Assembly: GCA_963750695.1 (NCBI GenBank)
Contig: CAVVSB010000002.1
Location: 68,047 to 132,046 of the forward strand
DNA length: 64,000 nucleotides
Reading direction: 5' to 3'
Origin: an uncultured Solirubrobacterales bacterium
Lineage (GTDB): Bacteria > Actinomycetota > Thermoleophilia > Solirubrobacterales > Solirubrobacteraceae
The position numbers were made by a program, and so were the translations under genes. Below are positions 4,931 to 62,996 of the stretch, in pieces; positions within the stretch are counted from its first letter, which is position 1, and each line of letters opens with the position of its first letter. The notes beneath the pieces were generated by a model. The model searched no databases. It was given only the letters and a program-made list of their open reading frames with translations, and had not been told where the DNA came from.

Positions 4931-5935
4931 ATGAACGTCTGGGTCGACCTCACGAATTCCCCCCACGTGCTGGTGATGCGTCCGGTGATCGCCGAGCTGC
5001 GGGCCCGGGGCCATCGCGTCCAGGTGACCGCCCGCGACTTCGCCCAGACGCTCGGACTGTGCCGGCGCTTCGGCATCGAGCACACGGCGATCGGCCGCCA
5101 CCGCGGCGGCGGTCTCGCGGCCAAGGGGATTGGTCTGATCCGGCGCTCCGCCCAGCTTGCACGGTGGGCGGACGGCCGGCGCTTTGATCTCGCCCTCGGT
5201 CACGGGTCGAACGACATCACGGTCGCCGCCCGGCTGCTGCGGATCCCGTGCTCGACGATGTTCGACTACGAGTGGGCGATTGTCCAGCACACCGTGAACT
5301 GCCGGCTTGCGCAGGGCGTCGTCGTGCCCGACGCGATCCCGCCCGAGCGCCTCAGGCGCTACGGCGCAACTCGCAAGCTGCACCCGTACCCGGGCCTCAA
5401 GGAGGAGTACTACCTCGCGGACTTCGAGCCGACGAACGAGGTGCTCGATGAGCTGGGCCTCGATCCGGCCGAGCCGATCGCGGTCATCCGCACGCCGCCG
5501 GCCGTTTCGCTCTATCACCGATTCGAGAACGACCTGTTTGCGAGCGTGCTCCAGCGGCTGCGCGGCACCCAGGTCGTCGTCCTGCCCCGAACCTCCGAGC
5601 AGCGCGCCGACCTCGAGCGGGCCGGCGGCTTCATCGTGCCTGAGCAGGCGATCGATGCGCAATCGCTGATCGCCTACGCGGATCTCGTCGTCTCGGCCGG
5701 CGGGACGATGAATCGGGAGGCGGTCGCCCTTGGTACGCCCGTGTACACGGCGTTCGAGGGGCGTCTGGGGGCCGTCGACGAGCGGCTCATCGCCGACGGG
5801 CGCCTCAGGCAGCTGACGGCCGCCAGCGACGTGTGCCTCGTCAAGTACGACCGCAGCCGCCACCGGCCACGAATCCGCCGCAATCCAGGGAAACTGACGG
5901 ACCTTCTGCTGGCGCCCGCGCTAACGCGCTCTTAG
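4931..5935 (+). CDS. DUF354 family GT-B-fold protein
   Basis: VWVDLTNSPHV, HGSNDI, YPGLKEEYYL and SAGGTMNREAVALGTP; GGAG RBS at 4921-4924. Confidence 0.85.
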   Translation: MNVWVDLTNSPHVLVMRPVIAELRARGHRVQVTARDFAQTLGLCRRFGIEHTAIGRHRGGGLAAKGIGLIRRSAQLARWADGRRFDLALGHGSNDITVAARLLRIPCSTMFDYEWAIVQHTVNCRLAQGVVVPDAIPPERLRRYGATRKLHPYPGLKEEYYLADFEPTNEVLDELGLDPAEPIAVIRTPPAVSLYHRFENDLFASVLQRLRGTQVVVLPRTSEQRADLERAGGFIVPEQAIDAQSLIAYADLVVSAGGTMNREAVALGTPVYTAFEGRLGAVDERLIADGRLRQLTAASDVCLVKYDRSRHRPRIRRNPGKLTDLLLAPALTRS

Positions 5936-5975
5936 CGCGGTCCGGGCGTGTTGCCGCACTAGAATTGCGCGTCGC

Positions 5976-7946
5976 ATGCGCCGGCGGATCAGATCCGCGG
6001 CCTTCCCCGTTCATCGCCACTCGTTGCCCCAGCTGCTGTTGGACGGTGCCTTGGTCGCGCTCGCGTACTACCTCGCGTTCCAGCTGAGGTTCGAAGGCCA
6101 TGTCCTCATCCGCTACGAGGATCTGTTTGAGCGCACGATTCCGTGGGTCGTCCCCGTCTGGCTGGTCGCGCTCGCAGCATTTGGCTGCTATCAGCGGCTG
6201 TGGACGTTCGTCAGCCAGCGTGAGTACGAGGCCGTCGTCAAGGCGGCGATCGTCGCGACGTTGGTCATCGTCGGCGCGATCGCGCTCCTGCACCCGGTGC
6301 AGACGCCGCCGCGGATCGTGCGGCACCACGACTCCTTCTCGATCACCTCGACTGCCGTCACGCTCCCGGCAAGCGTGATCGCGCTGTGCTTCCTGCTGAC
6401 GCTCCTGCTGCTGCTCGGCGCCCGATTCATCATCCATCTGATCGTGGAGGGGCGGGTCCGGAGCTTCCGCGTGAGCAAGGGTGCGCGTGACGCGCTGATC
6501 GTCGGCGGTGGCGAGGGCGGCCGGCTCGTGGCCCGCGAACTCGTCCGCAACCCGCAGCTACGGCTGCGTCCCGTCGGGTTCGTCGATGATGACCCGCGCA
6601 AGCAGGGGATCAAGGACGAGTACGGGTTGAGAGTGCTCGGGACGACCTCCGCCGACGACCTGGCGCGGATCCTCGACGAGGTCGAGCCGGACGAGGTCGT
6701 GATCGCCATGCCCTCCGCGCCGGGCACGCTGCGTGCGCGCGTCGTCGCGGCATGCCGGGCGCGCGGGATCCCGGTGCGGACGATGCCGACCGTATTCGAG
6801 CTGCTCCGTGAGGGTTCCGGTCAGCTCAAGGTGACCCGTCAGCTGCGTGAGGTCCGCGTCGAGGACATGCTCGGCCGAGAGCCGGTGCGGATGGAGCTCG
6901 AGCGGGTCGGGGCCTATCTTGCCGGCAAGGTTGTGCTGGTCACCGGTGCCGGCGGTTCGATCGGCAGCGAGCTCTGCCGCCAGATCGCTCGGGTCGGTCC
7001 GCGCAAGCTCGTACTCGTCGACCACGCCGAGGACAACCTCTTCGAGATTTTGCGCGAGCTTGAGGAGGAGCGGCACGTGCGCACCGCCACGCCCGTGCTC
7101 GCCGACTGCAAGGAGGAAGAACGGATGCGGGAGGTGCTCACCGAGCACCGGCCTGCGATCGTGTTCCACGCCGCGGCGTACAAGCACGTGATGATGATGG
7201 AGCTCAACCCGGTCGAGGCGGTGCGCAACAACGCTCTCGCGACGCGGCTCGTGGCGCGGATCGCGGGTGAGGTCGGGGTCGAGACGTTCGTCCTCATCTC
7301 GACCGACAAGGCGGTCAAGCCGGCGACCGTGATGGGTGCCTCCAAGGCGCTCGCCGAGTGGGCGGTCGAGGCGGCCGCCGCGAAGTATCCGGCCACGCGC
7401 TACGCGACTGTCCGGTTCGGCAACGTGCTCGGCTCCTCAGGCTCGGTCGTTCCGATCTTCCGCCGCCAGATCGCGGCCGGCGGGCCGGTCACCGTCACCG
7501 ACGAACGGATGACCCGCTACTTCATGACGATCCCGGAGGCGGTCCAACTCGTCATCCGGGCCGGCTCGCTCCACGACGGCAGCGGCGAGGTGTTTGTCCT
7601 GGAAATGGGCGAGCCGGTGAAGATCATCGATCTCGCCGACACGATGATTCGGCTCTCCGGGCTCGAGCCGGGGCGTGACATCGCGATCGAGGTCGTCGGG
7701 GCGCGAGCCGGCGAGAAGTTCCACGAGGACCTGTTCAACCCGACCGAGCACCCCCAGCCGACGCCGGCGCAGAAGATCCTGCGCGCCCAGCGGGAATCGC
7801 TCGATCCGGCCTGGGTCGAGGACGCGTTCGGCCGCATCAACCTGCTCGTCCTCGAGGGCGATGCGGCCGTGCTGGCGGAGCACGTATCGAGCCTCGCGTG
7901 GGGCCGACCGACGTCCGAGCCTCCTGGCGCCCGGATCGCCACGTAG
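5976..7946 (+). CDS. Membrane-bound nucleoside-diphosphate-sugar 4,6-dehydratase (CapD/PglF/WbpM family)
   Basis: N-terminal TMs; GFVDDDP; VLVTGAGGSIGSELCRQI; HAAAYKHV; ISTDKAV; RFGNVLGSSGSV; MTRYFMTIPEA. Confidence 0.95.
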   Translation: MRRRIRSAAFPVHRHSLPQLLLDGALVALAYYLAFQLRFEGHVLIRYEDLFERTIPWVVPVWLVALAAFGCYQRLWTFVSQREYEAVVKAAIVATLVIVGAIALLHPVQTPPRIVRHHDSFSITSTAVTLPASVIALCFLLTLLLLLGARFIIHLIVEGRVRSFRVSKGARDALIVGGGEGGRLVARELVRNPQLRLRPVGFVDDDPRKQGIKDEYGLRVLGTTSADDLARILDEVEPDEVVIAMPSAPGTLRARVVAACRARGIPVRTMPTVFELLREGSGQLKVTRQLREVRVEDMLGREPVRMELERVGAYLAGKVVLVTGAGGSIGSELCRQIARVGPRKLVLVDHAEDNLFEILRELEEERHVRTATPVLADCKEEERMREVLTEHRPAIVFHAAAYKHVMMMELNPVEAVRNNALATRLVARIAGEVGVETFVLISTDKAVKPATVMGASKALAEWAVEAAAAKYPATRYATVRFGNVLGSSGSVVPIFRRQIAAGGPVTVTDERMTRYFMTIPEAVQLVIRAGSLHDGSGEVFVLEMGEPVKIIDLADTMIRLSGLEPGRDIAIEVVGARAGEKFHEDLFNPTEHPQPTPAQKILRAQRESLDPAWVEDAFGRINLLVLEGDAAVLAEHVSSLAWGRPTSEPPGARIAT

Positions 7947-55260: not shown

Positions 55261-55866
55261 TCAGTACGGCGGCAGATCGGCCCACCACCGGCCGAGCACC
55301 CGGAACGCCGACCAGAACTCGCGCTTGGCGGTTTCCTCGTCGAGCGCGTCGTCGATATTCGGCACGTACAGGGCCTCGATCGATGGCGTGTAGCGCTGGA
55401 CGTCGCCGAAATCAGGGGTCAGCTCGCGGTGGAGCGGGACGTCGAGCTCGTTCATCACGGTCAGCGCCTCGGCGCCCATCACGACGATCATCTTCGGCTG
55501 GACGATCGCGAGTTCCTCGGCGAGCCGGGCGATGCAGCCGGGGTCGGCCATCACCGGGTCGAACACGGGGCATTTGGCGCACAGCGTCCCGTAGACGGCG
55601 AGCGGATCGATCGACAGGCGCTTGAGCGATTTCATCAGCGCGTTGCCGGTGCGGCCGTAGAACGCGACCCCCTCCTCGACCTCGGAGGGCCGAGCCGAGT
55701 ACTTGACGAGGAAGATGTCCGCCTGGGGGTGCCCGGACCCGAGCACGGGCATGAGCGCGCCCCGCGGGCACTGCGTACAGCTCTGGAGATCGCGGGAGAA
55801 GGCGTTCAGCTCGCGGATCGCCCGCTCGAGATATTTCTCGCGGATCTCGTCATCGGTGGCCGGCAT
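55261..55866 (-). CDS. Family-4 uracil-DNA-glycosylase-like protein with the catalytic motifs replaced
   Basis: CTQCP...PVLGSGHPQADI, G.AFYGRTG, AKC and QPKMIVVMG match the UDG4 scaffold; GEAPG is replaced by KYSAR and HP by PN. Confidence 0.8.
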   Translation of the reverse strand: MPATDDEIREKYLERAIRELNAFSRDLQSCTQCPRGALMPVLGSGHPQADIFLVKYSARPSEVEEGVAFYGRTGNALMKSLKRLSIDPLAVYGTLCAKCPVFDPVMADPGCIARLAEELAIVQPKMIVVMGAEALTVMNELDVPLHRELTPDFGDVQRYTPSIEALYVPNIDDALDEETAKREFWSAFRVLGRWWADLPPY

Positions 55867-55910
55867 CCCCCTCGGATTGGACGGCGGCTCAGCTTGTCCT
55901 TGCGCATGCA

Positions 55911-57800
55911 TCAGGACTTGCGCTGGACGCGGCGCACCCTTCGGTCCCGCGAGGCGCGTCTCGCGGCCTCCGGCAGGGCCTTCGTCTGGATGAATTTGAG
56001 CGCCTGGACGTAGAGCAGGCTGGCTGGGTTGCGCACGATGTCGGCGTCCCGCAGCGACTCGAGAAACTCCTCCGGCCCGTCGAAGTCCCGCATCCGGATC
56101 CGGACTGAGCCGAGTCCCTGGGGCACGTGAGCGTCGGACCCGGCACCCGCCGGGACCCGGTACTTGGCGGCGAACCGGACTGCCTCTTCGTTGAACTCGG
56201 CGATCGCGATCCGCGGGTTGAAGACCTCGATCGCGTCGACATCGTCGAGGACGTCGAGCAGGTGCTTGTAGTCAGGGACCGAGTGCATCCGGTCGAACGG
56301 GTGCGGCACGTACACCACACCGCCCTGGCGCTTGATCTCGGCGATCGTCTCCTGGAGCGTCATGCCGCGGCGGATCTTCTCGGTGAGGAACAGGCCGATG
56401 ACCTCGCCTTGGTCAGCGGTCTTGACCTCCTCGCCGACGATCACCTTGATGCCGTTCGCCTTCGCCTGCGCCTCGACCGCGCCGGAGATCTCGTTGTGGT
56501 CGGTCACCGCGATCGCACCGAGTCCTCGGGTCCGAGCCTCGGCGAGCAGCACCTCGACCGGAGTCGCGCAGTCGTAGGAGTGGTCGGTGTGCATGTGGAG
56601 GTCGACGTCGATGAGCGGCCGTCCGGAGAGCTTGCGGCGAAGCTTCGGAACCCCGCGGCCGTCGTGGCGCCGCGCGACGAGGTCGCCGTAGACGTCCTCG
56701 AAGTCGTCGGTCAGCCGTGACCACGACAGCGTCGCCCGCAGCGGCTCGGCCGCGCTGACGAACTCTCGGTGGGTGTCGGGCTCGCGCAGCAGCCGCTCGA
56801 GGTGCGCGGCGAGCGTCTGGACGTCGCCGGGCTCGAATTCCGGCCCATAGCGTCCCTCGGAGAGGAGCTCCTCGTACGGGGCGAGGCGGGACGTGACCGG
56901 GACGGCCTGTGCGGCGAGCGCCCGCACGAGTGTGCCCGGTGTCGCGCGGACGCCCTCGGAGGCGAGCACAACGATGCCAGCGGCCGCGATCGCGTCGCCT
57001 TCGGACATCTGTGAGGCGTCAACGAATCGCACCCGGTCGCGGAGCGCTCGGCCGAGCGTCGCCGGCGCGGCGAGCGGCCGGGACGACCACACCGTGGCGT
57101 GCCATTCAAGCTCCACCGGGAGCAGTCGCAGCGCGCGCAGGAACGTCCGCAGCGCGGCCCGCTCCTCCCGCGCGATCATCACCAGCTCGGTGCTGTCGCC
57201 GTCCGTCCGTTCGGGCTCGTCGGCCGCCGGAAGGATCACGCGGTAGTCGGCCGGGAAGAACCGCTGCATCAGCTCCCGCGTCGCGTGGTAGCTCGCGGTT
57301 CGGGCATCGAGTCGCCCGAACAGCAGTCGCGAAAGACCACGTGCGAGCTGCGTCGACAGGATCCGCTCGGTCGGTGCGTGGAACGTGCCGACGTTCAGCG
57401 CGCGCGAGTGGCGCAGGGCGATGCTCGAAGCGCTCGGTGCGAACGGCTCGTGCACATGGACGAGATCGAGCGCCAGATCGGTGAGCGCGTCCTCGATCGT
57501 CCTCGCGACGTCGACGGGGAGCGACGCCGTCCGCCGCTTCGTCGGCGAGAAGGGAAGCACCTCCCCGACGCCGAGCACGACGGGACCGTTCTCGGCGCGT
57601 GTGAGCAGTGCGTCCGGTGAGCTTCGCAGCGCCCGCCGCGTTTCGCGGACGAGCTCGCCGGACTCAGACGGCGCCACGATGAGGACGCGGTGACCGCGCC
57701 GCGCGAGCTCGTCGGAGACTCGCGCGACGTAGTGGTTCACCTCGTTCGTCGCCTCCCAGGCGAAGGGGGTCACCTGGGCGATCGCGAGCGCGCCGGGCAC
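55911..57800 (-). CDS. Fusion of a PimA-like GT4 domain (degenerate) and a PHP phosphoesterase domain
   Basis: AQVTPF, RGHRV, VHVHEPFAPS and VGTFH (PimA-like); DLHMHT, TDHN, GEEV, PHPFD and GSDAH (PHP); GTG 57800 with a TATCCT -10 box 7 nt upstream. Confidence 0.85.
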   Translation of the reverse strand: MPGALAIAQVTPFAWEATNEVNHYVARVSDELARRGHRVLIVAPSESGELVRETRRALRSSPDALLTRAENGPVVLGVGEVLPFSPTKRRTASLPVDVARTIEDALTDLALDLVHVHEPFAPSASSIALRHSRALNVGTFHAPTERILSTQLARGLSRLLFGRLDARTASYHATRELMQRFFPADYRVILPAADEPERTDGDSTELVMIAREERAALRTFLRALRLLPVELEWHATVWSSRPLAAPATLGRALRDRVRFVDASQMSEGDAIAAAGIVVLASEGVRATPGTLVRALAAQAVPVTSRLAPYEELLSEGRYGPEFEPGDVQTLAAHLERLLREPDTHREFVSAAEPLRATLSWSRLTDDFEDVYGDLVARRHDGRGVPKLRRKLSGRPLIDVDLHMHTDHSYDCATPVEVLLAEARTRGLGAIAVTDHNEISGAVEAQAKANGIKVIVGEEVKTADQGEVIGLFLTEKIRRGMTLQETIAEIKRQGGVVYVPHPFDRMHSVPDYKHLLDVLDDVDAIEVFNPRIAIAEFNEEAVRFAAKYRVPAGAGSDAHVPQGLGSVRIRMRDFDGPEEFLESLRDADIVRNPASLLYVQALKFIQTKALPEAARRASRDRRVRRVQRKS

Positions 57801-57823: not shown

Positions 57824-59002
57824 CTACTTCGCCGCGCTCGCGCTCTTCTTCTTTGCCGGGCTCGCCTTCACCGGCTTCTTGCGCGCGTACTTGGCGATGA
57901 ACGCCTCGGTCTGCTCGCGCGCCTCGTCGTCGGGACGCTGGTGCATCGGAGACTTCATCAGGTACGAGCTGGGACCGTCGAGCTGGCCGGAGAGGCCGTT
58001 GTCGAGCGCGAGCTTCACAATCCGCGTTGCGTCGATCACGATGCCGGCCGAGTTCGGGGAGTCCCACACCTCGAGCTTGAGCTCGGCGGTCAGCGGTACG
58101 TCGCCGAACGCCTGGCCCTCGAGGCGGATGTGCGCCCACTTGCGGTCGGTCAGCCACGGCACGTAGTCCGACGGACCGACGTGAACGTCGTCAGCGGGCA
58201 GGGTGTGCCCCATGATCGACGTGACGGCGTTCGTCTTGGAGATCTTCTTCGACTCCAGCCGCTCGCGCTCGAGCATGTTGTAGAAGTCCATGTTGCCGCC
58301 GACGTTGAGCTGCGAGGTCCGCATCAGCTTCACGCCGCGGTCATGGAAGAGGCGCGCCAGCGAGCGGTGCACGATGGTTGCGCCAACCTGCGACTTGATG
58401 TCGTCGCCGATGATCGGGAGCTTGGCCTTCTTGAAGCGCTTGCTCCAGTAGTCCTCGCGGGCGATGAATACGGGGATGCAATTGACGAAGCCGCAGCCGG
58501 CCTCGAGCACCTGCTCGACGTACCACTTCGTCGCCTGCTCAGAGCCGACGGGCAGGTAGGAGACGACGACGTCGGTGCGCGTGTCCTTGAGGATTTGGAC
58601 GATGTCGGCCGTCGGGCCGGGGGCCTTCTTGATCTTCTGGCTCAGGTACTTGCCGAGCCCGTCATGCGTCATCCCGCGCTGAACCTCGACGCCGAGCTTC
58701 GAGATGTCGCCGCCGAGCTTGAGCGTGTTGTTCTGACCGGAGAAGATCGCCTCTGACAAGTCCTTGCCGACCTTGTCGGCGTCGATGTCGAACGCGGCGC
58801 TGAACTCGATGTCCCGCACGTGGTAGCCGCCGAGATCGACGTGCATGAGGCCCGGCACAGAGTCGCGCGGATCAGCGTCCTTGTAGTACTGAACGCCCTG
58901 CACAAACGAGCTGGCGCAGTTGCCGACGCCGATGATCGCGACACGGACCTTGTCCGCCTGATAGCGCGCGGCGCCGTTGGTGGAACCGTTGGTGGTGGTC
59001 AC
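57824..59002 (-). CDS. ino1: myo-Inositol-1(3)-phosphate synthase
   Basis: [45 protein letters not shown] and DSPNSAG. Confidence 0.96.
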
Positions 59003-59092: not shown

Positions 59093-59734
59093 TCACGCCG
59101 TGGCGTTCAGCTGATTGCGCACATAGGCGATCCGCTGAATCGTCGTCAAGAGCGTGAGCCCGGCGAGGACATACACCGCCGGGGCGAGCAACTCAAAGTG
59201 CCCGATCGAGGCGCCCTTTGCGAACACGAGCCCGATCGACAGGATCACGACGCGCACGGGCCGGGTCGCGAGACCGACCTTACACGCGACCCCGAGTGCC
59301 TCCGCGCGGGCCCGGGTGTAGGACACCATCAGGCTGAACAGAACCGCGGCGACGACTGCGGCGACCGCGACCTGGTTGTGGCGTGAGGCGAAGTACGCGC
59401 CGACCGCGGTGAGCACGATGCCCTCCTCGAGGCGGTCGAGCGTCGAGTCGAGGAACGCGCCGAACGGGGTCCCCTTGCCCGACATCCGGGAGTAGCGGCC
59501 GTCGAGCGTGTCCATGATCGACCCGACGATGAACGCAATCCCGGCGAGGAAGAACAGGCGGCCGACGACGAGCGCGGCGGCAGCGATGTTGAGCGCGAAG
59601 CCGGTCAGCGAGATCGCGTTCGGCGTGAGCCGGGACTCGATCAGCCGCTCGCGCATCAGTTCCTGCGTCGTTGGCCCCTCGCCACGCCTGCGCGCGCCTC
59701 GGTTCCGAGTCCGCGCCTCGGTTCGGTCTGGCAT
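59093..59734 (-). CDS. pgsA: CDP-alcohol phosphatidyltransferase, probably phosphatidylinositol-phosphate synthase
   Basis: TPNAIS, DTLDGRYSR...GAFLDSTLDR, SYTRARAE and G..TRPVR; adjacent to ino1. Confidence 0.88.
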   Translation of the reverse strand: MPDRTEARTRNRGARRRGEGPTTQELMRERLIESRLTPNAISLTGFALNIAAAALVVGRLFFLAGIAFIVGSIMDTLDGRYSRMSGKGTPFGAFLDSTLDRLEEGIVLTAVGAYFASRHNQVAVAAVVAAVLFSLMVSYTRARAEALGVACKVGLATRPVRVVILSIGLVFAKGASIGHFELLAPAVYVLAGLTLLTTIQRIAYVRNQLNATA

Positions 59735-59740
59735 TCGTGC

Positions 59741-60538
59741 TTAGGCGGTCGCTGGGTGGAAGGCTCGTGCCGGCCGGAAGGCCCAGGCGTCAGGACGCGC
59801 GCGTGCGAGCAGCCGGCTCGCGATCAGCCACGAGGCGCCGGCGGTCAGCGCGCCGAGGAACACGTCGGTGAGGTAGTGGTTGCCGGTCGCGACGACCACG
59901 AAGGTGATCAGCAGTGGGTACAGCCGCCACGCGACCCGGGCTGGCCGGCGTCTCGTCAGCCGGGCCATCGGGATCCCGACCATCAGTGCGAAGCACACGT
60001 GCATCGAGGGTACGGCGGCGTACAGGTTGATGAGCGCGCTCGAGGCACCCTTCTCGACCGTGATCCCGGTGAACTGCTGGATCGAATCGGTGAAGCCCCA
60101 CTCCGGCATCAGCCGCGGCGGTGCGGTCGGGTACAGCGCGTAGCCGACGAGCGCAAGGGCCATCGCGATCATGAAGACGTTGCGCACGAAGTAGAACGAG
60201 TCGTTGCGGCGGAAGTAGATGAACAGCAGCGCCCCGAGCGTGACGAAGTAGTGGGCGTTCAGGTAGGTCCAGGAGGCGATGTCCATCAACCAGTGACGGC
60301 CGGCCACCCACGCCTGGATGCTGGGCTCGGCGAATACATGCAGCAGCCGCTCGAGGTGGATGATCTTGGTGGCGTCGCCGAACGGCTTGTAGCCAGGGCT
60401 GTACGCATTGCCGTAGACGACCGCGCGCACGAGCTCATAGAGCATGTATGCGCCCGCGCCGAGCAGGACCTGGCGAAACGCGTCCTTCCAGCCCCGCGGC
60501 AACACTTTCGTGCCGATCTGGTCGATTCGGCGTCGCAT
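59741..60538 (-). CDS. PAP2-superfamily membrane enzyme, AUR1/inositol-phosphoceramide-synthase-like
   Basis: YPTAPPR, AAVPSMH (C2) and ATGNHYLTD (C3); 6 TMs; ATG 60538 with GAGG RBS. Confidence 0.82.
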   Translation of the reverse strand: MRRRIDQIGTKVLPRGWKDAFRQVLLGAGAYMLYELVRAVVYGNAYSPGYKPFGDATKIIHLERLLHVFAEPSIQAWVAGRHWLMDIASWTYLNAHYFVTLGALLFIYFRRNDSFYFVRNVFMIAMALALVGYALYPTAPPRLMPEWGFTDSIQQFTGITVEKGASSALINLYAAVPSMHVCFALMVGIPMARLTRRRPARVAWRLYPLLITFVVVATGNHYLTDVFLGALTAGASWLIASRLLARARPDAWAFRPARAFHPATA

Positions 60539-60615
60539 CCGCCTCTGATCGTAACTCACGTCGTGTTGATGCTCAGTAAGCGTCCGCACTTAACGCCCGG
60601 TTTTGGCGGATCCGG

Positions 60616-62193
60616 TCAGCTACAGCGCTCCGACCGCGCCCCGATGCGGTCAAATGCGAAGGCGATCGCCAGGCGCACGCGCTCGGGCCTCGGCACCGTG
60701 ATCGCGGTGAATTCGCCGCCGGGCGCGACGCAGCCGGCTCCGCGTTCGATCGACCAGTACGGCGTGAAACGCACGCGCACGAACAGCGTGCCCGCCCGGT
60801 GGGCCTCGATCGTGAGGTCGTCGGGCCCGAGGCCGGTCAGTGTCGCCGGTCCCTGAACGATCGGTGTCGGCTGCTCGACGGCGTACACGCGCCAGTGCTG
60901 GGAGCGCATCACGAGCTTGAGGTAGGGCAGCCCACCGCGGACAAGTGCCGTTTCCTTCTCCGCCGAGAAGTCGAGGCGGGCATCGGAGATCGCGACGAAC
61001 CGCACCGCGAGCGAGTGCAGCCACGCCTCGTACGTCCGCGCATTGAGCGTGCCGTCGTAGAACAGGTGGTTGTACTTGATGTCGAGCTGACGCTCCCAGC
61101 CCCGCGCGAGGGGGAAGTAGGGCGCGACGTCGTACGTCTCCCAGTGGAACTTGGTGAACGGGATCTCGATCCGGAAGGGCGGTCCGGTCTGACGGCGCAG
61201 AAACGCGAGCAGCGGGTCGTAGTACGAGGCCTGTACCGACGGGTCGTTGGCCGAGCGGTTCACGTCACGGACGGGCGCCTGCCACTGCACGTACGCGAGG
61301 GGCAGTACCGCCGCAAGCAGCCAGCGGGGATGACGGCGCCACCAGAGCAGCGCGGCCAGGGGACCGCCGATGAGCGCGGCGAGCCGGGCGGCGTTGCTCC
61401 CAACCGGGCTTGAGAGTGCGTAGGCCGCGAGTGTGCCGAGGCCGTACAGGAGGACTCCGATCCGAAGCGCGAGCTCTTCCTTGGGGAGCGCGAAGAACGT
61501 CGCCGCCGAGATCACGATGACCGGCCACAGGGTCGCGAACGTGAACGGCTCGCTGCCGCCCTCCGGAAACGCGACCACGAGTAGGGCGACGGGGAGCAGC
61601 GCACCGACGACGACCGCTGCACCGGGGAGCGCGGCCCTGATGCGGCGCTCGGTGATGAGCTTGGCGAGCGCGACCGCCGCGCCGCCGAGGGCGGCGAAGA
61701 GGGCTGCGACCGGGCTCGCGAGTGCGGCGAGGACGGCGCCGATGGTGGCGAGGACGGGTTGTCGGCGCCTCAGCGCGACCATCGCCGCCATTGCCGGCAG
61801 CATCCCGAACGCGAACGCGAGTCGGCCGGTGAACAGGTTGCTCGCAGTTGCGGCGCCGAACCACACCGACCCGAGCCACGCATCGGGGCCGAAGTGCTCG
61901 TACGCGAGCAGCTCGAACAGCGCCGCCGTCGCGACGCATGCGAGTCCGGCGGCCAGCTGGGGCGAGAGGGCGGCCTCGATCGGTGGGAACAGGACGCTGT
62001 AGCCGAGCGTGTGGTGCCCGGCGTACCACCAGTTGTTCCACAGCCCGAAGCCCTCGGCTCGGAACAGCTTGGCGCGCAGCAGATGCGCCGCGAGATCGAA
62101 GCTCGGCGGCGAGACGATCACGTACACCGTCGCCAGCACCGCGGCCACGATCGTCGGGGCCGCGCGCTTGAGGTTGATGCGACGGCCTCTCAC
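60616..62193 (-). CDS. Multi-pass membrane protein, GT-C-like (putative glycolipid glycosyltransferase)
   Basis: About 11 TMs; first-loop DLAAHLLRA...WNNWWY.GH; GR..FA; soluble RIEIP...RGWERQLD region; GTGA overlap with the upstream hydrolase. Confidence 0.55.
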   Translation of the reverse strand: MRGRRINLKRAAPTIVAAVLATVYVIVSPPSFDLAAHLLRAKLFRAEGFGLWNNWWYAGHHTLGYSVLFPPIEAALSPQLAAGLACVATAALFELLAYEHFGPDAWLGSVWFGAATASNLFTGRLAFAFGMLPAMAAMVALRRRQPVLATIGAVLAALASPVAALFAALGGAAVALAKLITERRIRAALPGAAVVVGALLPVALLVVAFPEGGSEPFTFATLWPVIVISAATFFALPKEELALRIGVLLYGLGTLAAYALSSPVGSNAARLAALIGGPLAALLWWRRHPRWLLAAVLPLAYVQWQAPVRDVNRSANDPSVQASYYDPLLAFLRRQTGPPFRIEIPFTKFHWETYDVAPYFPLARGWERQLDIKYNHLFYDGTLNARTYEAWLHSLAVRFVAISDARLDFSAEKETALVRGGLPYLKLVMRSQHWRVYAVEQPTPIVQGPATLTGLGPDDLTIEAHRAGTLFVRVRFTPYWSIERGAGCVAPGGEFTAITVPRPERVRLAIAFAFDRIGARSERCS

Positions 62194-62996
62194 CGCAGGA
62201 AGTCTTCGATCGCATGGGCGGCCCCCGGGTCATCGAGCCAGGGCCAGTGGCCGGCCGCGGGGAATCGCGCGACGGTGGCGTCCGGAAGGCGCGTGGCGAG
62301 CTCGTCGATGTCCCGGGCGTCGCGCCATGGGTCGTGCTCGCCGACGACGATCAAGGTCGGTTGTGTCACCTCGTCAAGGGCGGCGGTGGCGCTCACGAGC
62401 AGCGAGGTGTCGGTGGCGCGGTGCAGGCGGAGCGTCGCCCGCTGGGTGCCCTGATCGAACTGTTCCCACAATGGGTCGACGCGGGCCTTGGGCCATGTTT
62501 CCGGCGTCGCACTCGCGCGCCGCAGTTCCCGTGCGAACAGGGCCCTCGTCGTCGACCCCATCGCAAGCTCGCCGACGACCGGGCGCCGCCAGGTGCGGGC
62601 GAGGCGGTGCCAGTGCACGGTCGGCAGCGGCGCCAGGGGGTTGCAGAGCGCGATCCTGTCGATCCGCTCCGGGTGACGCTCGGCGAGCGTCAGGGCGACG
62701 GCGGCACCCCAATCATGGGCGACGAGCTTCACGTTCTCGACGCCGAGCTCGTCCAGAAACTCGATGACGAAGTCGCTTAGGCCGCTGAGCGAGTAGTCGA
62801 GGTGGCCACCCTTGCCGCTGCGGCCGAAGCCGATCAGGTCAGGGGCCAGCCCGCCCGTTCGCTCGAGCAGCTCGCTCCAGTCATCGGAGCTGGTCGGGAT
62901 CCCGTGGAGGTACAGCGGCGGTGGATCGGCGACGGGAGCGCTGCGATAGAAGACGGGCGATTGGTCGAGAGTGATCGTGTGCTCATCGACGCGCAC
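62190..62996 (-). CDS. Alpha/beta hydrolase (epoxide hydrolase/dehalogenase-type, Asp nucleophile)
   Basis: LHGIPTSS, PDLIGFGRS, AHDWG and AGHWP. Confidence 0.88.
   Translation of the reverse strand: MRVDEHTITLDQSPVFYRSAPVADPPPLYLHGIPTSSDDWSELLERTGGLAPDLIGFGRSGKGGHLDYSLSGLSDFVIEFLDELGVENVKLVAHDWGAAVALTLAERHPERIDRIALCNPLAPLPTVHWHRLARTWRRPVVGELAMGSTTRALFARELRRASATPETWPKARVDPLWEQFDQGTQRATLRLHRATDTSLLVSATAALDEVTQPTLIVVGEHDPWRDARDIDELATRLPDATVARFPAAGHWPWLDDPGAAHAIEDFLR

Follow-up and report, generated by a model that had tools for sequence, protein, structure and literature searches.

Which enzyme removes the phosphate from phosphatidylinositol phosphate (PIP) is the question raised by a gene on the minus strand of a 64,000-nucleotide stretch of DNA (the window) from an uncultured soil Solirubrobacterales actinobacterium. 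The phosphatidylinositol (PI) of bacteria and archaea is made via PIP, and the phosphatase of this pathway is known genetically in Bacteroides only, where it is of the PgpA type. The mycobacterial enzyme had been called unassigned in the first-pass annotation of the window, and a preprint of July 2026 still describes it as 'as-yet unidentified' (bioRxiv 10.64898/2026.07.15.738315). The gene in question encodes a protein, here called the fusion, in which a GT4 glycosyltransferase-like domain resembling the mannosyltransferase PimA is joined to a metal-dependent phosphoesterase of the PHP type. The fusion is the best candidate in its lineage for the missing PIP-to-PI enzyme, and we rate it so because the genes for myo-inositol-phosphate synthase (MIPS) and a putative PIP synthase adjoin it, because PgpA is absent and because an intact PHP domain is fused to a fold like that of a PI-binding protein. 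The more specific proposal, that the PHP domain would act as a phosphatase of PIP (phosphatidylinositol-3-phosphate) while the glycosyltransferase half would serve as a non-catalytic module for binding the membrane or the lipid headgroup, stands in our estimate at about an even chance. The genomic context, which the first-pass annotation did not draw on, is a strong pointer to PIP or inositol-lipid chemistry. What the analysis establishes is the fold, the lost residues, the pattern of conservation and the gene order, whereas the substrate and the part played by the dead domain are inferred.

Architecture of the fusion

The gene and the parts of its product are as follows.

55911-57800, minus strand: whole fusion gene (GT4-like, PimA-like domain plus PHP phosphoesterase); 629 amino acids, GTG start, TGA stop
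57201-57800, minus strand: GT-B N-terminal (acceptor-side) Rossmann domain, residues 1-200 (Pfam Glyco_transf_4, alignments, conservation)
56646-57200, minus strand: GT-B C-terminal (donor-side) Rossmann domain, residues 201-385, degenerate and the fastest-evolving part (alignments, conservation)
56019-56618, minus strand: PHP + PHP_C metal-dependent phosphoesterase, residues 395-594 (Pfam, NCBIfam, conservation, model, Foldseek)
55914-56018, minus strand: C-terminal two-helix tail, residues 595-629 (secondary structure of the model, charge calculation)

The stop codon occupies 55911-55913 and the GTG at 57800 is taken as the start because orthologues begin M-P-G-A-L-A-I-A-Q at the same place, so that the gene coordinates of the first-pass annotation are right; a longer open reading frame from 58157, which would overlap the upstream MIPS gene, was rejected on the same ground. 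All of the peptides quoted in that annotation were found in the translation, which carries EATNEVNHYV (57726-57755), DLVHVHEPFAPS (57432-57467) and EGVRATPGTLVRALAAQ (56907-56957) in its glycosyltransferase half, DLHMHT (56586-56603) and GSDAHV (56124-56141) in its PHP half, and also VGTFH, AVTDHNE, GEEVKT and VPHPFDRMH. Pfam assigns Glyco_transf_4 to residues 21-192 (55.9 bits), Glyco_trans_1_4 weakly to residues 207-339, PHP (PF02811) to residues 400-465 (48.8 bits against a cut-off of 26.4) and PHP_C (PF13263) to residues 535-585 (48.3 bits against 21.3), whereas Glycos_transf_1 (PF00534), at 20.5 bits, falls under its gathering score of 26.4. NCBIfam matches were sub-threshold only and comprised CehA/McbA-type metallohydrolases, pAp phosphatase, RNase RNM and DNA polymerase III PHP domains. 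A full-length model was built with AlphaFold2 on 23 diverse family members (pLDDT 89.3, pTM 0.86). Recent decay to a pseudogene was considered and rejected: the frame is intact, the glycosyltransferase half has been conserved over 81 species, and so have R293 and R214.

The PimA-like half has lost its donor site

The N-terminal half had been described as PimA-like, and PimA is indeed its top match both by sequence, where the M. smegmatis protein is the best match in the PDB (4n9w/2gej; E 3e-10), and by fold, where the best Foldseek match of the model in the PDB is 2gej (E 2e-16; TM 0.81 on the target), with BshA and MshA next. The AlphaFold2 model, Foldseek and Pfam all describe a GT-B fold with two Rossmann domains. 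In PimA the donor pyrophosphate is held by Gly16, Arg196 and Lys202, Glu282 clamps the ribose, Glu274 contacts the mannose, and His118 is a further conserved substrate-binding residue; in the PimA relative ManT, also a mannosyltransferase, mutants of the equivalent Lys and Glu residues lose activity or are crippled (PMC9883506, PMC4506291). Residue correspondences were drawn from HMMER and MAFFT alignments of the fusion to PimA and to the intact PimA-like GT4 of the same genome, and four of the five PimA donor-binding residues (Gly16, Lys202, Glu274 and Glu282) proved to be replaced. PimA G15-G16 aligns with N19-E20, the Gly-rich loop, PGGV in intact enzymes and reported as TNEV here, being replaced by EATNEVNHYV; E20, the counterpart of G16, is Glu or Asp in 74 of 81 orthologues. 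PimA K202 corresponds to A215, with Lys in 0/81 orthologues, E274 to R285 (Glu in 0/81; Ala in 32, Arg in 31) and E282 to R293 (Glu in 0/81; Arg in 69), both arginines lying in EGVRATPGTLVRALAAQ. Across Solirubrobacterales and Thermoleophilaceae the second motif position is Arg in the majority of orthologues, and the first is Arg in roughly four of every ten. The first-pass statement that the E-x7-E motif had lost its glutamates therefore holds for this protein and for all 81 Thermoleophilia orthologues, though not for the whole family, some deep-branching fusions (P0152/L095 and L090) having retained the motif and many others its second Glu. Retention of E-x7-E in orthologues was named in that annotation as a ground for refuting its reading, and it is partly borne out here.

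The acceptor side has fared differently. PimA H118 corresponds to H117, which is His in 79/81 orthologues and is kept as H117-E118-P119, and PimA R201 corresponds to R214, which is Arg in 81/81. Because H117 and R214 are conserved while the equivalents of G16, K202, E274 and E282 are replaced, the cleft of the Solirubrobacterales fusion is one in which, as judged from the alignments, the acceptor side is retained and the donor side lost. The same division is seen in substitution rates. Measured against 80 orthologues, non-synonymous divergence (dN) amounts to 0.11 in the PHP domain, 0.28 in the glycosyltransferase N-domain and 0.46 in the C-domain, so that the subdomain for donor binding changes at roughly four times the rate of the PHP domain; since synonymous divergence (dS) is near saturation (0.5-1.4), only relative dN values and a paralogue control were used. 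In that control the ratio of C-domain to N-domain identity was 0.76 for the fusion and 1.05 for the intact PimA-like paralogue from the same genomes. On this comparison of sequences the loss of the donor site is old and selective, and not a matter of chance or local decay.

Conservation in the glycosyltransferase half is highest in the HVHEP...VGTFH region (residues 106-150) and in residues 211-225, which read EERAALRTFLRALR. Ten arginines of this half are near-invariant (R100, R130, R146, R163, R167, R214, R218, R222, R225 and R256), and the acceptor-side domain also carries a conserved basic loop, R89-R90. Such a pattern would fit a module that, on its acceptor or membrane side, still binds an anionic partner.

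The PHP domain and the C-terminal tail

The first-pass annotation had also noted that the PHP domain keeps all of its metal ligands, and the set (HxH, D, H, E, H, DxH) is complete: H402, H404, D410, H435, E458, H500, D556 and H558 are all present, their columns being conserved in 80-81 of 81 orthologues, and D503, H506, D522, E525 and N528 are likewise invariant at that level. The PHP domain, with the lowest dN, is the slowest-evolving part of the fusion. A model of the PHP part on its own (pLDDT 96) is nearest in Foldseek to TM0559 (2anu), the PHP domain of RNase AM (7ug9), PsfC (7rty), BAD_1165 (3e0f) and the pAp phosphatase Cv1693 (2yb1), at about 20% identity and TM 0.56-0.68. Since its nearest structures are only some 20% identical, the domain is placed in a separate PHP subfamily that has no characterized close relative; against the NCBIfam equivalogs for TrpH/YciV RNase AM and 3',5'-bisphosphate nucleotidase (NF041577 and NF047791) the fusion scores 43.8 bits (cut-off 400) and 42.6 bits (cut-off 375). 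The tail that follows the PHP domain has a net charge of +9, compared with -6 over the glycosyltransferase half and -13 over the PHP domain, and resembles what may be a membrane-surface anchor.

The operon and the rest of the genome

The fusion belongs to a tight minus-strand operon, whose other members are given here in the order of transcription.

62190-62996, minus strand: alpha/beta-hydrolase, gene 1 of the operon, of haloalkane-dehalogenase/epoxide-hydrolase type with an Asp nucleophile (AHDWG)
60616-62193, minus strand: 525-amino-acid polytopic membrane protein, operon member between the hydrolase and PAP2_3
59741-60589, minus strand: PAP2_3 (AUR1/IPC-synthase-like) membrane protein (Pfam PAP2_3, E 7e-42; NF052609 weak)
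59093-59734, minus strand: CDP-alcohol phosphatidyltransferase, putative PIP synthase (NF045883, E 1e-36; NF040950, E 2e-37)
57824-59002, minus strand: MIPS/Ino1 (Pfam Inos-1-P_synth; TIGR03450, E 7e-162)
55261-55911, minus strand: family-4 UDG-like gene, directly downstream of the fusion (Pfam, NCBIfam)

The CDP-alcohol phosphatidyltransferase matches PIP synthase and archaetidylinositol-phosphate (AIP) synthase best, below the equivalog cut-off in both cases, and PgsA at just E 1e-6. It lies 6 bp from the PAP2_3 gene upstream of it and 90 bp from the MIPS gene, which is in turn separated from the fusion by 23 bp. Synthesis of di-myo-inositol-phosphate was rejected as the purpose of these genes: the transferase has 213 amino acids with Pfam CDP-OH_P_transf only, a cytidylyltransferase domain being absent, and its scores against PIP/AIP synthase are far better than those against IPCT/DIPPS. 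To our knowledge actinobacteria are not a group known for sphingolipids, yet the operon encodes an AUR1/IPC-synthase-like PAP2_3 protein, presumed to transfer phosphoinositol. The 525-amino-acid membrane protein has no family match in Pfam or NCBIfam. The UDG-like gene overlaps the fusion by 1 nucleotide (TGATG) if read from its first ATG, or follows it after a gap of about 44 bp if read from the Met codon at 55866, and its NCBIfam UDG scores are far under the cut-offs.

The conservation of this arrangement was counted in the best 80 related loci with 6-kb flanks, so that the counts are limited by the flank. The UDG-like gene was present at 78 of the 80, MIPS at 74, the PIP synthase at 61, PAP2_3 at 50, the 525-amino-acid membrane protein at 45 and the alpha/beta-hydrolase at 34 at least. 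The order PIP synthase, MIPS, fusion is kept in Thermoleophilia fusions that are just 28-37% identical, relatives in which the UDG-like gene also adjoins the fusion, and in the class genomes sampled the PIP synthase is mostly 3-8 kb from the fusion on the same contig.

PgpA (PF04608) was found neither in the fusion by Pfam nor anywhere else in the genome. Other needs that the fusion might have served are covered: the genome has four IMPase-family genes, no MshC and a separate canonical PimA-like GT4. A role as a replacement IMPase is unlikely given those four genes, and a mycothiol step of the MshA/MshA2 kind was rejected, since no mycothiol ligase MshC scores above the cut-off anywhere in the genome, which thus has no mycothiol pathway, and the best match is PimA and not MshA. 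The separate GT4 is intact (PGGV, ERKG and ESFGMVLTE). A second PHP_C open frame, of about 801 amino acids, lies in the same genome (G000:C9:434250-434402, plus strand) and is too dissimilar to be picked up by a search with the whole fusion.

Distribution and lineage variation

A word-indexed search for relatives of the fusion gave at least 8000 matches, and a representative library 7402 at E ≤ 1e-3, of which 499 were at E ≤ 1e-30. The best 80 genome loci were all from Thermoleophilia (Solirubrobacterales, Thermoleophilaceae and Conexibacter). Among 301 sampled Actinomycetota genomes no genome of the same order and hardly any of the same class was without the fusion; in this sample the relatives outside Thermoleophilia were stand-alone PHP proteins only, 37-50% identical, and the other 249 genomes gave no match. 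A control genome, that of Corynebacterium glutamicum, encodes no PHP_C protein. Fusion orthologues are thus restricted to Thermoleophilia, and because of this confinement the mycobacterial PIP phosphatase is not assigned by our finding.

The stand-alone proteins closest to the fusion outside the class, at about 46% identity, are encoded at L103 (5966-6706, minus strand) and L102 (about 6227-6808, minus strand), in each case with a TldD/PmbA peptidase pair immediately upstream and an NTP_transferase gene close by; a PAP2_3 gene is 3 kb away in L103 and is not found in L102. No PIP synthase or MIPS gene was found near stand-alone PHP relatives at genome loci, and two metagenome contigs were too short to have neighbours. 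A conserved link between the stand-alone proteins and their neighbours was rejected, the neighbours being TldD/PmbA pairs, NTP_transferase and, once, PAP2_3, with no PIP synthase or MIPS.

Within the class the donor-site motifs vary with lineage. The deep-branching f5 fusions (P0152, L095) keep E-x7-E (EWLQQTGLE) and have Arg for K202; the f6 fusions (P0143, L093, L094) keep a WG-V loop, EPRK and the second Glu and have lost the first; the f7 fusions (L092, L098; P0148 type) keep the second Glu alone; and the f4 fusions (L090, L091) keep H-E-P, with E-x7-E also kept in L090 (EAGSPVLRE). Because deep-branching fusions keep part or all of E-x7-E, the ancestor of the fusion was probably an active bifunctional enzyme with glycosyltransferase and PHP activities, the halves having been lost differently by lineage, and the loss of the donor site is, on the motifs, probably specific to Solirubrobacterales and Thermoleophilaceae. 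A pairing of an intact fusion glycosyltransferase with the absence of a separate PimA was looked for and not found: in a search of 23 genomes (22 of the class plus G000) a separate PimA-like GT4 was present in 21, independently of the motif state of the fusion, so that the glycosyltransferase half of the fusion is never the sole PimA-like enzyme. We regard as a speculation, and as a doubtful one, the fuller history in which the family would have begun as a bifunctional PIP phosphatase and inositol-lipid glycosyltransferase, lost either activity by lineage, and had the dead PimA fold rebuilt as a receptor for the PIP headgroup or the membrane, or as a docking platform for the PIP synthase. In that history the persistence of the fusion in one piece throughout the sampled class, despite the death of one half or the other, would mean that neither half can do physically without its partner.

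Proposed function of the fusion

Our working hypothesis is that MIPS would supply inositol-3-phosphate, that the PIP synthase would join this to CDP-diacylglycerol to give phosphatidylinositol-3-phosphate, and that the multinuclear metal centre of the PHP domain would then remove the inositol phosphate monoester to yield PI. This PI may pass both to the separate intact PimA-like GT4, for making phosphatidylinositol mannosides (PIM), and to the AUR1-like PAP2_3 transferase of the operon; Solirubrobacter has been reported to contain PI and PIM (PMC10722151). In Solirubrobacterales the PimA-derived GT-B fold would no longer bind a nucleotide sugar and would persist as a non-catalytic module, the Arg-rich acceptor-side cleft, the basic loop and the polybasic tail together holding the fusion at the membrane's cytoplasmic face and probably binding the anionic inositol-phosphate headgroup. 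The idea, put forward in the first-pass annotation, that a dead glycosyltransferase fold delivers PIP to the PHP domain may be correct, its backing being the conserved Arg-rich cleft. The kinship of the fold supports PIP/PI chemistry, because the substrate of PimA, PI, is the product of the proposed PHP reaction.

When the fusion is considered as a PIP phosphatase, the role it was given in the first-pass annotation, the adjoining PIP synthase, the upstream MIPS gene, the class-wide gene order and the absence of PgpA are in its favour; the confinement to Thermoleophilia and a lineage with a dead PHP domain qualify that reading, and several observations weigh against the proposal. The f4 fusions (L090, 5033-6850, plus strand; L091, about 5481-7157, minus strand) sit in the same operon of PIP synthase, MIPS, fusion and UDG-like gene and have lost six of nine PHP ligands, with DLRVRT for DLHMHT, AVAAPGG for AVTDHN and TAGSAAAA for GAGSDAHV, which makes them the mirror image of the window protein. 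Because this lineage keeps the operon with destroyed PHP ligands, PHP activity is not indispensable everywhere, and in f4 the dephosphorylation of PIP, if it occurs, needs another enzyme. The conserved synteny also takes in unrelated genes (the UDG-like gene and a TRAM methyltransferase), and part of it may come from shared ancestry within one class and not from function; in the 301-genome sample no stand-alone PHP relative from outside the class lies beside a PIP-synthase-like gene. The nearest solved PHP proteins are the uncharacterized TM0559 and enzymes of RNA or nucleotides (RNase AM and the Cv1693 pAp phosphatase), and homology alone suggests a substrate that would be nucleotide or RNA. 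Finally, the operon encodes an alpha/beta-hydrolase, the same fold as that of EphE (Rv3670), a candidate mycobacterial PIP phosphatase that lacks the nucleophile and is predicted to associate with PimA (bioRxiv 10.64898/2026.07.15.738315). It is because of the f4 lineage and this hydrolase that we hold our confidence no higher than an even chance.

Other explanations have to be weighed against the same evidence. The PHP domain might act on a different phosphomonoester of the pathway, such as soluble inositol-3-phosphate, a phosphorylated product made by PAP2_3 or another glycosyl- or phospho-inositol intermediate, and the operon context supports such species as well as it does PIP; the next fold matches, BshA and MshA, use small anionic acceptors, the acceptor of MshA being inositol phosphate. 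We nevertheless think this unlikely, as the genome has its four IMPase-family genes and no mycothiol ligase, inositol phosphate is consumed directly by the PIP synthase, and PAP2_3 is absent from several lineages in which the order PIP synthase, MIPS, fusion is found. There is a small chance that the domain belongs with the TrpH/YciV-like phosphoesterases of nucleotides or RNA, of the pAp phosphatase or RNase AM type, and that its link to inositol lipids is incidental. In sequence profile and in fold its nearest characterized relatives are 3',5'-bisphosphate nucleotidase, RNase RNM/AM and the PHP domains of DNA polymerase, and the UDG-like gene downstream and the TRAM RNA methyltransferase nearby would suit such a function, but the equivalog scores cited above are far below their cut-offs, the identity to known folds is about 20%, and both the covalent union with a PimA-like fold and the class-wide adjacency to PIP synthase and MIPS would be left unexplained. 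The proteins concerned (7ug9, 2yb1, 2anu and 3e0f) share with the fusion the PHP + PHP_C fold, the full set of His/Asp/Glu ligands and the chemistry of phosphoester hydrolysis, and differ from it in their nucleotide or RNA substrates, in having no GT-B fusion and in having no link to lipid genes; identity to them is about 20%, with TM 0.56-0.65.

That the fusion is still bifunctional, its glycosyltransferase half glycosylating PIP or PI through a non-canonical donor site before the PHP domain removes the phosphate, has a slight chance only. Trehalose-6-phosphate synthase/phosphatase, sucrose-phosphate synthase (SPS) with its SPP-like domain and GgpPS, from the trehalose-phosphate, sucrose-phosphate and glucosylglycerol-phosphate pathways, join a GT-B fold to a phosphatase of the same pathway, and inactive partner domains occur there too, in the SPP-like domain of plant SPS and in class II trehalose-phosphate synthase; their phosphatases are of the HAD type and their acceptors soluble sugar phosphates, whereas here the phosphatase is a PHP domain and it is the glycosyltransferase half that is inactive. 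Deep-branching relatives with E-x7-E, or with EPRK and the second Glu, would agree with continued transfer, as would the purifying selection on this half and its invariant cleft (H117, R214 and many Arg). The replacement of G16, K202, E274 and E282 throughout the order, two of them by Arg and with 0/81 exceptions, argues against it, as do the Glycos_transf_1 score below gathering level, the position of the donor-side domain as the fastest-evolving part and the presence of an intact PimA-like GT4 elsewhere in the genome. The slightest chance goes to the alpha/beta-hydrolase (62190-62996), or less likely PAP2_3, as the PIP phosphatase, with the fusion serving chiefly to scaffold or regulate a PI-synthesis complex. 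The epoxide-hydrolase-like EphE is, after all, the current mycobacterial candidate and a predicted PimA binder, a dehalogenase/epoxide-hydrolase-like gene heads the operon and recurs at 34 or more of the 80 loci, and the f4 lineage tolerates a dead PHP domain. The hydrolase is, however, absent from deep-branching operons that have the fusion, and, where EphE lacks the nucleophile, it has a normal Asp; PAP2_3 matches the AUR1/IPC-synthase-like family and by eye shows PSMH and NHYLTD and no KxxxxxxRP phosphatase motif; and invariant PHP ligands under the strongest constraint in the protein would be unexpected in a scaffold.

Relation to known systems

The nearest precedent for the operon is the Bacteroides cluster BT_1522-1526, which encodes an AUR1-like PI-DHC synthase, a PIP synthase, the PgpA-like PIP phosphatase BT_1525 and MIPS, and for which there is genetic evidence in B. 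thetaiotaomicron, a BT_1525 knockout accumulating PIP (Heaver et al. 2022, PMC9246714). The fusion holds the slot of BT_1525 in an operon of MIPS, PIP synthase and AUR1-like genes, and the reaction we propose for it, PIP to PI, is the same; the PgpA and PHP folds have no homology, so that any shared function would be analogous. A PHP-type PIP phosphatase would, if our proposal is correct, be a second and unrelated solution to this step, a non-homologous counterpart of the Bacteroides enzyme, and would be the first of the PHP enzymes compared here to act on a lipid headgroup. The literature searched contained neither a link between PHP proteins and PIP dephosphorylation nor a GT4-PHP fusion.

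PimA (2gej/4n9w) shares with residues 1-385 of the fusion the GT-B architecture of two Rossmann domains, H118-E-P and R201, and acts on the same family of lipids at the membrane's cytoplasmic face. Unlike PimA, to which it is about 20% identical, the fusion is without G16, K202, E274 and E282, and so has no canonical GDP-mannose site, and it has a phosphatase attached. It would be a clean natural case in which a pseudo-glycosyltransferase has been retained for binding or scaffolding, and in a sister lineage it is the opposite domain that has died. EphE and the fusion are both putative enzymes of the same missing step, and the association with PimA that is predicted as a physical one for EphE is here a covalent one with a PimA-like fold; the alpha/beta-hydrolase fold of EphE is unrelated to PHP. 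The fusion offers a soluble, easily expressed candidate for tests of PIP-to-PI conversion and possibly a complementation probe for an M. smegmatis ephE mutant.

The separate intact PimA-like GT4 of the genome (L002, 295-2718, minus strand, equivalent to G000:C21, around 835871-837010) has 807 amino acids and carries a C-terminal LPG_synthase_TM/flippase-like membrane domain. Most of the other genomes sampled from the order have open frames of 773-803 amino acids at the orthologous position, which suggests that this fusion of a PimA-like GT4 with an LPG_synthase_TM/flippase-like domain is conserved in the order.

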